Positions 3,358 to 52,160 of a stretch of DNA of 64,000 nt are shown in pieces. The stretch is from Octopus vulgaris (Eukaryota), in NCBI GenBank assembly GCA_951406725.2, contig OX597828.1, positions 46,314,001 through 46,378,000 on the forward strand, read 5' to 3'. The translations under genes were made by a program, and so were the position numbers. The notes under the pieces are model-generated. The model made no database searches, had not been told where the DNA came from, and saw only the letters and a program-made list of their open reading frames with translations. How positions within the stretch are numbered: position 1 is the stretch's first letter; each line of letters begins with the position of its first letter.

Positions 3358-3965
<608 letters not shown>

Positions 3966-5144: not shown

Positions 5145-5792
5145 TAGATGTACATATATGATATATATATATACATTATGTAGATATAAATGTGTCTGTG
5201 TGTATTTTTATGCATGTATGTATCCATGTATTCACGTATGAATGTGTGTGTACAGACAAATACACATACGAATCTGCACAAACACTCATACACACACACA
5301 CACACCTATTTAAATGCAAACAAATCAGGTTATCTCAATCGCTATCATAATTTCTAATTTTTCCGACATGTCTTTAGGCTAAATTCAAAATACCTATATT
5401 ATTCAACGAAGTTTGGATTCCATCCTTTCTAACAGAGAATATCTTTAACCAAATACATTCCTGGAGAACTCGCACTTATTTTTTTTTTTTAATTTATTTT
5501 CTCTATTTTTGGTTTTCTCGTTTATTCGGTATCTTTTCTTACATAATATGCTTTGAGCAAAGCAGCAAATATTTGTATGGATGTTATTTTTAATCTGTAT
5601 AAATATTATAAAAATGTAGTACGTCTTTTTTTGGTATTTTTCATTTATTTTCTTTCTTTTTTTTTTTCTTTACACTTTCTTTTCGGTGCGCGCAGACAGA
5701 GACAGGCATTCACATCATATATACACGAACAGTTATATACAGAATAAATCATAGACACATTTATATGCCAAAACGCTGACACACACATACAG

Positions 5793-7699: not shown

Positions 7700-8095
7700 T
7701 GAGAATGATAACTGTGTATAAAGTACCAAATCTATCGAAAAAGTTCAACTGAATATGGAGACAATGTTTAGACGTTATTTCCTCTCTATAAATGGATTGA
7801 TTCATTCAACAATAGTCGCACAAGTATCACGTATCAAATGAGTCAGATGACCATGTTTTATTTGTTTTTCATTGATACCGACATTGGACCAGCATCTTCA
7901 TAGTTCTGTCGAGCAGACAGATGAGCATTGATGAAATGGCAAAAAATATGCAAATTAATCTTGGTCCTGTTTATTCAACTATCCCCAACACATTTGGTTT
8001 AAGTAGAAAAATTGTTCGAGTTAGATCTAGAAACATCTAGAATTGCTCCAAGAATATCGTTTTGAAATCAGTCAATGACTGGTAGATTACTTTGA
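7700..8095 (+). pseudogene. Decayed mariner transposase N-terminal (HTH) fragment
   Basis: YGDN..YKWIDSFNNSRTSIT and RQMSIDEMAKNMQINLGPVYSTIPNTFGLSRKIV resemble mariner VYxWxxxFxxGRTS and RxTIxEIAxxLxISxGSxxxIxxxxLGxRKV. Confidence 0.6.
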
Positions 8096-9020
8096 TTAGG
8101 ACTTTGAGACATCCTTAGTAATAAATGCCATTTCTGACGGCCTTTTTATAGACACATTGTGTATAAATAATGATTGAATCTCATTGATACACATGCGGAT
8201 GTAACTATTATATCTGGCTGCATTTTACTTTAATTAAAGGGAGATATGTCTTTGACATTGAAATGGAGAATAAGTTAGTCTTGCTTAAAACTACTCTAGA
8301 TGTGACCGCTGCAAATTTACTTAAAACGGATAGAAACCATATAAACTGTATTTGGTAACGAAGATAAACACAAAAGCTGTGAAAAGAAAGAGCGCAACAT
8401 GTCTGAGAAGAAAATTTGAATTAGCGTGTGAGCGAAAACTAGTCACACTTTATCATAACAGTGAAAAACACTATTTTCTCGAGCCGAGGTGATTCACCTG
8501 GGATGGCTGTTTCGCATAACAGAAATAGCAGAGAAATCTCTTTCAATATAGTGTTTTAGAGTGATCGTTTATTGTCCTGTATATGCTATTTCTGAACAAG
8601 AAATACTGTATGAGCAGAGCGGTTAACGTTTGGTAAAATGTATATCTAAACACGTGTGGACAGGAGCTAAACTATGAACAATCGCAACATCATCGACAAC
8701 AACAACAATTGCAACAGGAAAAACAACAATAATAGCAGCTGCAAAAACCGCAATAACAACAGCAACATAGTCAACAACGGCGCCAATAAATTTCGAATTT
8801 CATCGAATGCTATTAATGTTTCCTTGTAATGTGTCATTGTACAAAACAAACTAATGATTATCTGAACTGCGAAAGCAGCCATTTTTCAATACGATTCTCA
8901 CAAATGCAATGTGTGTGTTTTTCTGTGTGTTAGTGAGTGTGTCTGTGAGTGTGTGTATGTGTGAGTATGTGTGTATGCGACGCGTGGTGTGTTTATGAAC
9001 TTTCATACGCATATTCAATT

Positions 9021-34953: not shown

Positions 34954-35310
34954 CCACACATATATATATTTATATATATTAAATAATTGATGACACCTGG
35001 TAGCCTTGGTGAACGTGTTCTCAAGGCACGTTACTAGGAACTTATCCGAAACAAAGTTTGGATACTATATTTTAAAATCTATCTAAACTTCAATTTTAAA
35101 AAAATATATATATATATTGCCATGATAGATCGCAAGCCGCTACACATTCTTTATTTTCTCTCCTTGTTTCTTTCAGTGAAAGACCGTTGTATCGAAACGT
35201 TAAAGACTTCTTCACTTCCCGAGTGTTAAACTAATACATCTGCTTTCGTCTATTGTGTTTTTGTGAATTTCCCTCCTAAATAAATACATATATATGAATT
35301 TATATATATG

Positions 35311-35375
<65 letters not shown>

Positions 35376-35641
35376 ATAGACACACGCACGCACACACGCA
35401 CACACAACGCACGCACATACTCACGTTTGATATGTTCTAAACTGTTTACGACTTCGAAATCCACTAACAAGGTATTACTGGCTTGCAATAAGAGCGGAGG
35501 TCACTCGGCCAAAGAGCCGCGCCAATAGTGCGACTTAACACAAAACCAAGTTGTTGAGAAATTAATTGAAGCACACTACAATGTCGCCATCATATTATGT
35601 GTTTGTGATTGTGCATGTGTATATATATACATATATATATG

Positions 35642-35710
<69 letters not shown>

Positions 35711-35828
35711 TTAGAGACAAAACCACTATTAGGCAAATCAAACAATGAAAAACTTAAGCCAATACTTATGATTAATTTATATTATTTAAATATATAACAA
35801 AATTATTAAAAAAATATAATTAATATCA

Positions 35829-35892
35829 CACTACGATCGTTTCATGCCTGCTAACATCTTCAAATTTTTGAGTCGCAGTCATTCATCAGGTG
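35829..35892 (-). ncRNA. Minimal type-I hammerhead ribozyme (antisense copy in left arm)
   Basis: Reverse complement of 35964-36027. Confidence 0.8.
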
Positions 35893-35963
35893 GTTTAAAT
35901 ATTTTTCTTGGCGAGGTTTAAACAATGAACTCTACTATAGTTCGCCAAGAAAAATATTTAAAC

Positions 35964-36027
35964 CACCTGATGAATGACTGCGACTCAAAAATTTGAAGAT
36001 GTTAGCAGGCATGAAACGATCGTAGTG
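35964..36027 (+). ncRNA. Minimal type-I hammerhead ribozyme
   Basis: CAC-CUGAUGA-[AUGACUGC..GCAGGCAU stem II]-GAAA-CGAUCG-UA-GUG: intact core, palindromic stem III, GUA cleavage triplet. Confidence 0.85.
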
Positions 36028-36254
36028 TGATATTAATTATATTTTTTTAATAATTTTGTTATATATTTAAATAATATAAATTAATCATATGTATTGGCTT
36101 AAGTTTTTCATTGTTTGATTTGCCTAATAGTGGTTTTGTCTGTAATTTAATATAATATATTTTACTATAAAATTGGATTCAATCCTAAATCTGATTTTTC
36201 CATGTAAGTTTGGATTTATTCCCTAATATTTATTATTAATATATATATATACCT

Positions 36255-36297
<43 letters not shown>

Positions 36298-36327
36298 TAC
36301 ATATATATATATACATATATATATATT

Positions 36328-36359
<32 letters not shown>

Positions 36360-36396
36360 CATACATATATATATATGCATATATATACATATATAC

Positions 36397-50135: not shown

Positions 50136-50216
50136 TCTCTCATCATCTCTCATCTTTTAGATGGTACACTGGTACACGTACACACACTACTCATATATGT
50201 ATATATATATATATAT

Positions 50217-50501
50217 AATCATCTCTCATCTTTTAGATTACGTCATAAGGCTGATAGCACTACTCTTTCTAGTAAAATTTGGGAACTAAAAAACAATAAT
50301 ATCAAATATAACCTAAATTGGGAATTAGTCAGAAGAGCAAAACCCTATAAAAATAGCAGAATAGGCTGCCAACTTTGCTCCATGGAAGCATTTGAAATAC
50401 TAATGTATAAAAATAATGGAGAAATTCAATTAAACAGCAGAACTGAACTTGGAAAATCTTGTATACATGCTCGGTTTAAGACTCTTAAATATTTTAAATG
50501 A
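50217..50501 (+). pseudogene. C-terminal half of a PLE GIY-YIG endonuclease (resembles Hydra-clade type)
   Basis: NHLSSFRLRHKADSTTLSSKIWELK..W..PY..CQLCSMEAFEI..LNSRTEL..CIH; open to a natural stop. Clade assignment from memory. Confidence 0.8.
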
Positions 50502-51780
50502 TATTTTAAATCATATCTCAATTGATAACTGTATACTGGAATCATTTTACATAAAATTCAATTTTGACTTACATATCACTCCTACATAGTATATATTTAA
50601 CTAGAAAGATAAGTTCTAACTAGATATGATTATAATTTTTTCTCTCTCTGATAGTACTATTTGATACTTATTGACTTAAATTATTTATTTGATTTGTTTC
50701 TATTGGACCATATTATTAATAAATTAATTTTATCTCCATTTCTTAGTCTATTTTTTATCCCATTACAAATTTTAGTTAGTTAATTCTCTTAATTTTTTTT
50801 AAACTTTTAAAATTAATTTCTGCTAATACCAGACCTATTATAGTGTATTGTGATGTGATATAATTTATCAAAATAATATAATATAATATAGTGTAGTGTT
50901 TTATAGTTTAGTATAATAATAATATAATTGTTTAATTTAAGATTTTCATTTAATAACATTATGTATGTTTTATAGTTTAGTATAATATTAATATAATAGT
51001 TTAATTTCATTTAAAAACAACCCCATTTTTCTTTCCTTTCTAATGACCTATCTGTAACCTGACAATCTATTAATAGTAACATTTATGAATAAAGAAATAA
51101 ATTGTTGACTTCAGTTCGAAACTGTTCCAAACAAACTTAGACTTTTTTGTTAGTATCAAATTGTGCCCATCCCCTTAGCTTCCCCTTTCCTTTCTCTTTG
51201 ACATCTTAAATAGCAGTAACTGATTAAATTCCTACCCCCTTCCTCCTATTTCTGTGATTCTTGAATATTTCATTAACTACCTGAACCACTACAATATAAG
51301 GCTGTCATTTTTGCTTCTCATTCGGACTCCCTAATATTTTCGCATGATTGTACCTTAAATCCCTCCACAAAACCGGATTACGAACTATAAGGACATACAC
51401 AAATTTTGTAAGTTCAAGACTTTTTCATCAGATCTCAAAAAAATCGAACTTATCTGCGATTCTTGTTAATTTCAATAACAATCTGTTCTTCTACACGACA
51501 TGACAGTCACTATGTTTTTACTCAGACTTTCCTCTACATGATGTGGCAGTCACTTTGCCTCTTACTCGGATTTTCAGAAATTTTGCATGTCTGTATCCGA
51601 AAATTTCTTCATACAACTTGATCAAATATCCAATATGAACTATATGTAGACATGCATAAATTCTATAGGTTTAAAACCTTTCATCAGATCTCCATGAATC
51701 GAACTTTCTTCAATGCAGTTAATCCTACAACCTCTTTTATATCTACCCCTTTTGATGCTTGGGAATTCTCTGATATTTTT

Positions 51781-51864
51781 TCGGCTGACGAGTACGAGCC
51801 ATCTGTATTCACTGCATTTTTTGTAGCTTATTAAAGATGTCCTCGTACGAAACGATCGTACCGA
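51781..51864 (+). ncRNA. Minimal type-I hammerhead ribozyme
   Basis: UCGG-CUGACGA-[GUACGAG..CUCGUAC]-GAAA-CGAUCG-UA-CCGA: perfect stems I and II, intact core, predicted cleavage after A51860. Confidence 0.9.
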
Positions 51865-52036
51865 GATTTTAATCCATTCTTGTTGCTTTTTTCCTATTTA
51901 TAATCACCCCATTGTCGTATGGCTAACACCATATTGATATCCGGTGCATCCTAGTTAAGGACCATATTCATGTGAATTCTTTAGAATTCACTAGAATCTC
52001 AATTACTTAACCGTATACATATATATATATATATTA

Positions 52037-52160
52037 TATAAATTAGAGATAAAACCACTATTAGGCAAATCAAACAATGAAAAACTTAAGCCAATACATA
52101 AAATTAATTAAGTTATATTATTTTAAATATATATCAAATGTATTAAAAGTTTAATAAAAG
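52037..52160 (-). mobile_element. Fragment of the 35.7 kb PLE pseudo-LTR family
   Basis: AATTAGAGATAAAACCACTATTAGGCAAATCAAACAATGAAAAACTTAAGCCAATAC is nearly identical to ~35709-35765. Confidence 0.8.

Follow-up and report, generated by a model that had tools for sequence, protein, structure and literature searches.

A hairpin of Octopus vulgaris DNA is, in all probability, made of two spliced solo pseudo-LTRs (pLTRs) of an abundant EN+ Penelope-like element (PLE), and its likely origin is a double reverse transcription of one spliced sense RNA, begun at two internal sites, at the two strands of a single cut in a (TA)n tract. It lies at 35702-36240 of the 64,000-nt stretch that we analyzed (contig OX597828.1, positions 46,314,001 to 46,378,000; hereafter the window). 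Both arms belong to a family whose ORF is present in other genomic copies, and both show the intron-less junction. Elsewhere in the family, pairs of arms combine a short with a long 3′ end and share subfamily variants. The best reading of the hairpin is that of an integration by-product.

Structure of the hairpin and its hammerheads

The arms of the inverted repeat span 35702-35914 and 35942-36154 and are separated by a 27-nt spacer, 17 nt of which continue the left arm. They are 213 nt long and 99% complementary, with two mismatches, 35766/36090 and 35714/36142. A preliminary description, made from the letters of the sequence, had reported a near-perfect inverted repeat in a (TA)n tract; this holds, with the arm length corrected from 212 nt. 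The hairpin folds with a predicted energy of -330 kcal/mol (z -45), and none of 100 shuffled sequences was equally stable. The whole insertion is wider than the span first given, and the right arm extends as family sequence for about 80 nt beyond the repeat, to about 36240. The outer ends of the two arms are unlike, one short and one long. Both ends of the insertion run into (TA)n, where no target-site duplication is readable. Each arm lacks a 700-nt GT..AG intron that other family copies retain. Neither the splicing of the arms nor the difference between the outer ends had been noticed in the preliminary description. The arrangement is the inverted pLTR insertion proposed earlier, i.e. two head-to-head solo pLTRs of a PLE, with the following features:

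35620..35706: (TA)n target tract, left side
35702..35931 (- strand): left arm, a spliced pLTR copy with a short 3′ end (about 135 nt past the ribozyme cut site) and 29 nt of exon 1
35829..35892 (- strand): left-arm type I hammerhead, the mirror of the right one; CUGAUGA starts at 35889, predicted cut after A35832
35902..35903 (- strand): left-arm exon 1/exon 2 junction, 700-nt intron absent
35923..35928 (- strand): TCATTG, which we take to be Inr-like from its consensus, with its A at 35926; the commonest 5′ end of spliced family copies and putative transcription start
35932..35941: 10-nt filler at the head-to-head junction; part of it resembles the exon-1 word TAGTTC and its border is ambiguous
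35942..36240 (+ strand): right arm, a spliced pLTR copy with a long 3′ end (about 215 nt past the cut site) and 12 nt of exon 1
35953..35954 (+ strand): right-arm exon 1/exon 2 junction; in the genomic copy L062 the GT..AG intron occupies 7724-8423 at the equivalent point
35964..36027 (+ strand): right-arm type I hammerhead
36155..36240 (+ strand): tail of about 80 nt, on one arm only; in the parent element it ends about 60 nt before the ATG of the ORF
36239..36395: (TA)n-rich target tract, right side

When both strands of the window were scanned in full with a hammerhead descriptor, three matches were obtained, namely the two arms and a site at 51785, which agrees with the earlier report of one type I hammerhead per strand. 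In the right arm the core consists of CUGAUGA (35967-73), a 39-nt stem II region (35974-36012) and GAAA (36013-16). Stem I is CAC/GUG (35964-66/36025-27), with only three contiguous pairs, and the stem III strand ACGAUCGU (36016-23) is self-complementary; cleavage is predicted after A36024. The motif on the - strand of the left arm is identical. Both have the CUGAUGA/GAAA/UH core and stems I to III in type I order, with stem I of 3 bp. The word 'minimal' in the preliminary description does not fit, because stem II is long and the motif is therefore not minimal in size. The geometry was described correctly: one sense ribozyme lies downstream of its own antisense copy, and the two ribozymes point apart. 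A scan against Rfam gave no family at the gathering score, for which the long stem II may be the reason.

The predicted monomer fold is weak, with pairing probabilities of about 0.11 for stem I and 0.002 for stem III. An intermolecular stem III duplex is predicted at -10 kcal/mol, in line with the earlier suggestion that the palindromic stem III suits dimers. In the full hairpin the predicted pairing probability of all ribozyme helices is 0.0. Four families in the genome have a common core plus ACGATCGT, and in a qualitative comparison their stems I and II differ yet still pair. Among 149 arms, sampled with a bias toward intact copies, the core varies by 1.0% compared with 2.1% downstream. Since the core and stem III are common to four families whose stems I and II change yet pair, the hammerhead motif appears to be maintained in the source elements.

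Published PLE hammerheads resemble the one described here in being of type I with a short stem I, a long stem II and a small palindromic stem III, and 'dual min-HHRs' about 100-700 bp apart on opposite strands have been reported (Cervera and de la Pena 2014, PMC4209133). The available text of that paper also places the D. virilis Penelope hammerhead next to the 3′ end of the pLTR intron, as in octopus. The octopus motif differs from the hammerheads covered there in its 39-nt stem II region, its 3-bp stem I and an intron that ends 10 nt before stem I instead of at stem I. Similar PLE hammerheads cut poorly and as dimers (PMC4209133), and cutting with protein help is described in the available text of PMC11167929. 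The hammerhead presumably serves the parent element, where cleavage would be weak and would probably take place in dimers or with the aid of protein. At 35702-36240 both ribozymes are whole, which argues that the template of this insertion was uncut. Here the ribozyme is a passenger, and the hairpin is predicted to bury it in any transcript of the locus.

The parent element and its classification

Searching the 2.8-Gb genome gave 1260 first-look candidates, 40 of which were scored; the full-length ones are 92-98% identical. Exact matching returned 880 sites for a 28-mer and 235 for a 23-mer, compared with 0 for the reversed controls, and the family comprises at least 880 arms in the genome. 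Other copies contain a 700-nt AT-rich insert, GTATGT...TTTTAG, exactly at the equivalent of window 35953/35954 (L062 7724-8423), and the intron-bearing copies continue for kilobases upstream.

The organization of the parent unit could be read from L062. There, a spliced pLTR with tail (3575-3869) is followed by the 5′ UTR, the ORF, a 1.3-kb 3′ UTR, exon 1, the intron, the hammerhead, a short end and (TA)n. The ORF runs from 3928 to about 6410 (about 2.5 kb) and is broken by a frameshift and two stops, and the unit measures about 4.85 kb. The pLTRs at 3575-3869 and 8424-8630 flank the ORF in a partial tandem organization. Between the RT thumb region and the linker, at about 5370-5700, L062 also carries an N-rich insert, which resembles the N-rich inserts of Adineta Penelope families.

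RT pieces of L062 match P0012 with E-values of 5e-37 and 1e-39, and P0012 matches Pfam RVT_1 (2e-7); ORF pieces match relatives of 700 aa. The parent's own ORF pieces gave no RT or GIY-YIG match in Pfam, and its RT piece no sequence match in the PDB. The C-terminal 175 residues of another copy, L065, were modeled with a pLDDT of 86.6. The best structural alignment was with I-TevI (Z 9.3, rmsd 2.5, 90 aligned), followed by T4 EndoII, UvrC and Hpy188I, and the top 8 rows are GIY-YIG-type nucleases; Foldseek returned no match at E<=0.001. The PLE origin put forward in the preliminary description is supported by a parent ORF with RT and GIY-YIG, recovered from genome copies outside the window.

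The family has the characters of EN+ PLEs: a single RT + GIY-YIG ORF in parent copies, an inverted 5′-truncated copy with a tail at one end, a hammerhead in the pLTR and genomic copies that keep the intron. For EN+ PLEs, inverted pLTRs that bear a tail on one side have been published (PMC8557442; Pen2a_Av in PMC3846280), and these insertions share with the octopus hairpin the head-to-head 5′-truncated pLTR, the tail at one end, the microsatellite target and the pLTR hammerhead. Compared with the insertions in the available text of these papers, the octopus hairpin lacks an ORF between the arms, its tail is about 80 nt long instead of 30-40, and both its arms are demonstrably spliced.

Judged by motifs only, the parent element is of the Hydra type. 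We read from the alignment RIKWK (a variant of RMRWK), SDKT, CTCRDKSKC, CYLC and CRH, with the EN C-terminal, and the 3′ ends of copies point to insertion into (TA)n. These features correspond to the C-terminal GIY-YIG, RWK-like motif, DKT, CxCX5C linker, nuclease CxxC + CxH, (TA)n target and canonical-core hammerhead of the Hydra clade (PMC8557442). According to the available text of the same paper, the clade includes Hydra-1_Obim, for which a different hammerhead is listed, and Penelope-13_HM, which has an inverted copy and a hammerhead on each strand. Its members are 'generally <3 kb', a length given as a tendency, from which the octopus element departs with its unit of about 4.85 kb, the 1.3-kb 3′ UTR, the 700-nt intron and the N-rich ORF insert (PMC8557442). 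Published PLE consensus supplements may already list the octopus family.

Spliced copies, unequal ends and the origin of the inverted arms

To describe the genomic copies we used the first 100 of the 880 matches in genome order, together with one extra match in a fetched locus. These 101 arms comprise 34 spliced and 10 unspliced copies and 57 that end in exon 2 or are not assignable. All but one of the spliced copies (33 of 34) stop no more than 35 nt from the donor, and in 8 copies the end is the A of TCATTG. The exception, L225, is a spliced copy reaching about 500 nt upstream of exon 1, which suggests that splicing of read-through RNA does occur at times. The same picture came from an overlapping sample made up of the first 100 of the 235 matches, with 37 of 37 spliced copies stopping in this way (intron border off by one base). 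Long copies with the 3′ UTR were unspliced in 16 of 17 cases, in a set biased by having been searched with intron sequence. As the spliced copies stop near the Inr-like start, their template would be spliced sense RNA.

A sister family (L227-L255), with a 19-nt stem II region, also occurs in unspliced (TTTTAG/GTCTTG) and spliced (GAAG/GTCTTG) forms; in the spliced form the sequence extends only about 25-30 nt upstream, and short plus long is found in two of its pairs. The GT..AG joint was also seen in one contig of run X1. Since the spliced form exists as DNA too, this joint is no demonstration of RNA splicing. In D. virilis, Penelope sense RNA is made from a pLTR promoter (PMC2377424), and the pLTR likewise has a start site, a short first exon and an intron, with both spliced and unspliced forms. 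The octopus family differs from the D. virilis element, as described in the available text of PMC2377424, in an exon 1 of about 24 nt instead of 46, an intron of 700 nt instead of 75, and an abundance of spliced DNA copies.

The 3′ ends of the arms are bimodal, falling near +135 and +215 after the cut site. An inverted partner was found for 71 of the 101 arms (about 70%), with the two arms of L209, which lie further apart, scored as solo. Among 48 unique pairs, 43 combine a short with a long end, 1 is short plus short and 4 have an unclassified end. Short plus long therefore accounts for 43 of the 44 classifiable pairs (p 2.6e-12 against 0.5).

Arm similarity was compared in 68 unique pairs from all fetched loci, a set biased toward young copies, of which 57 were measurable. 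The median divergence of arms was 1.5% inside a pair (n=57) and 3.8% from one pair to another; of 311 diagnostic (subfamily-variant) cells, 17 were discordant, compared with 125 expected by chance. Some arms are discordant: those of L022 carry different subfamily variants, with 9 differences over 203 nt, which indicates either that two templates were used or that something happened later. Arms could also be alike because of later gene conversion, and gene conversion or two templates may be behind some of the pairs. The pair at 35702-36240 is fairly recent, unexceptional and undated. The 'young insertion' of the preliminary description holds only loosely, as 44% of the 57 measurable pairs are equally alike.

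We propose that transcription would be started by the pLTR promoter at or near TCATTG and that the 700-nt intron would be spliced out. The RT-endonuclease would nick both strands of a (TA)n tract, one primer would start at +135 and the other at +215, and both would run toward the 5′ end of the RNA. Joining of the two cDNA ends via microhomology or filler, followed by fill-in, would then produce the inverted repeat. Priming in the cap-proximal pLTR would give spliced stubs such as 35702-36240. For the long copies the template would be read-through RNA, with priming in the downstream pLTR, whose intron usually remains unspliced, which would explain intron retention. Comparable in vitro results exist for PAc (Anolis Poseidon; Frangieh et al. 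2024, PMC11167929): reverse transcription begins at two internal sites, which define the tail, each strand of the target is cut and then extended, and uncut RNA is the main template. Unlike those of PAc in the available text, the octopus start sites lie in the 5′ UTR and not in the ORF, and almost every genomic pair takes one arm from each site.

It is unlikely that the inverted arm of the same element was made by self-priming, either by cDNA fold-back or on an antisense RNA template, with a nuclease trimming one end to leave the tail; the available text of PMC3846280 favored the antisense template but left the question open. Near-identical arms would be expected from self-priming, and junctions do often fall at palindromic words, with an end cluster at the stem III palindrome and 15 of 101 ends at ATTAAT (+5..+7). 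The long arm reaches as far as the short arm in 6 of the 43 short-plus-long pairs and further 5′ in 8, and fold-back allows these 14. The short arm reaches further 5′ in the other 29, for which simple cDNA fold-back is excluded, and 6 pairs have arms without any overlap. In addition, the spliced junctions and the ends at the Inr-like site need sense RNA, and 22 of the 30 arms scored as solo have the short end, which marks it as a start site in its own right. Taken as sequence evidence, the spliced arms at the start motif, the short-plus-long pairing and the shared variants favor double priming on sense RNA over antisense self-priming.

A further question is whether one RNA was copied twice. 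The arms might instead stem from two RNAs copied by an RT dimer, or have been homogenized later by gene conversion, which we hold to be improbable. In favor of two RNAs are the diagnostic cells that disagree (17) and the most divergent pairs, whose arms differ by 3-6%, and PAc has been modeled as a dimer (PMC11167929). Nevertheless, concordance is far above chance, and the strict pairing of short with long ends is simplest with both sites on one RNA; the PAc start sites, in the available text of PMC11167929, show no strand preference.

The preliminary description had also suggested that the hairpin silences the ribozyme or supplies long dsRNA for ADAR or siRNA. A read-through transcript would indeed form the -330 kcal/mol duplex and, by prediction, lose all ribozyme helices. 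So much of the silencing proposal stands; silencing as a role is unsupported, as are a role in making dsRNA and transcription of the locus itself. That the hairpin was kept for such a function, as a ribozyme switch or a dsRNA source, seems to us very improbable. An inverted partner in 71 of 101 sampled arms points to a by-product, and the arms here are no more alike than those of many other pairs. No host exon was detectable with Pfam in 130 window frames. In 20 frames there was no match at E<=0.001, apart from which one weak poly-residue match reached 0.006; a partly overlapping set, 110 of 120 candidate frames, also gave no match, although short exons could escape such a scan. With the intron and most of the upstream sequence missing, self-transcription of the locus is doubtful. 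Lastly, a MITE-like DNA element or a tandem non-LTR retrozyme, suggested by a short, non-coding unit with terminal inverted arms and a type I hammerhead, was rejected as next to impossible, given the spliced junction, variable centers, one-sided tail, absence of a tandem unit or array at the locus, and above all the parent element, since other copies are contiguous with the family's own RT/GIY-YIG ORF.

Copy ends at the cut site, neighboring elements and the PLE cycle

Around the ribozyme cut site, the genome-wide counts of apparent 5′ breaks are 4 for position +1, with 2 junctions; 10 for the cut itself, with 9 junctions; 2 for -1, with 1 junction; and 14 for -2, with 7 junctions by our reading, counting L274, the rest being point changes. 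In the 101-arm sample, 5 ends lie at -2..+2 compared with 16 at +3..+9, the ATTAAT palindrome. The weak genome-wide excess at the cut hints that cut RNA was the template of some copies, but clusters about as large also form at palindromic words.

Several related sequences were observed in the window. A second high-copy family is present at 50214-52043 (+ strand), with its hammerhead at 51785 and 1810 first-look candidates, the top copies being 95-99% identical. It has the same core and the ACGATCGT stem III, whereas its stem I measures 6 bp and its stem II region 57 nt; short and long 3′ ends and inverted arms are present in this family too. Adjoining its end, 52014-52148 (- strand) is a diverged (86-89%) short-end fragment of the hairpin's family or of the sister family. 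Another repeat, at 35165-35300 (+ strand), has (TA)n at its end and contains a decayed stem/GAAAC-GT word; by eye, it is probably a different PLE end.

Other observations concern copies outside the window. Inside the intron of L062, 7871-7936 is far commoner in contigs than the rest of the intron; it is similar to the 3′ terminus of an element in L012 that carries an RT, and its reverse strand reads as a stem followed by GAAAC. Contig depth over the equivalent of L062 8564-8625, the final 60 nt of the short end, is tens of times that of the remaining pLTR, which suggests many ultra-short copies or a derived mini-element. In L259, and at a loose end in run X4, the ORF start is joined directly before post-cut pLTR sequence, as in a tandem or circle-like junction or after a template jump.

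The origin of PLE head-to-head ends and of intron retention is stated to be open in the available text of PMC8557442 and PMC3846280. We did not find the division into spliced stubs and unspliced long copies, or the short-plus-long rule, in the published PLE literature searched; older PLE papers (Arkhipova 2003, 2006; Evgen'ev and Arkhipova 2005; Pyatkov) may hold them. Hundreds of stubs resemble the locus at 35702-36240, which gives no indication of a function and matters for what it reveals about PLE integration. Double priming gives a direct prediction for the PAc in vitro system. More tentatively, the copies could record the whole PLE cycle, with sense RNA primed at two sites, splicing marking the pLTR that was used, and a minority of copies made from RNA that the hammerhead had cut in vivo. 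If this is true, an antisense template could no longer explain inverted ends and retained introns, and the copies would be evidence that a metazoan PLE hammerhead cleaves in vivo.
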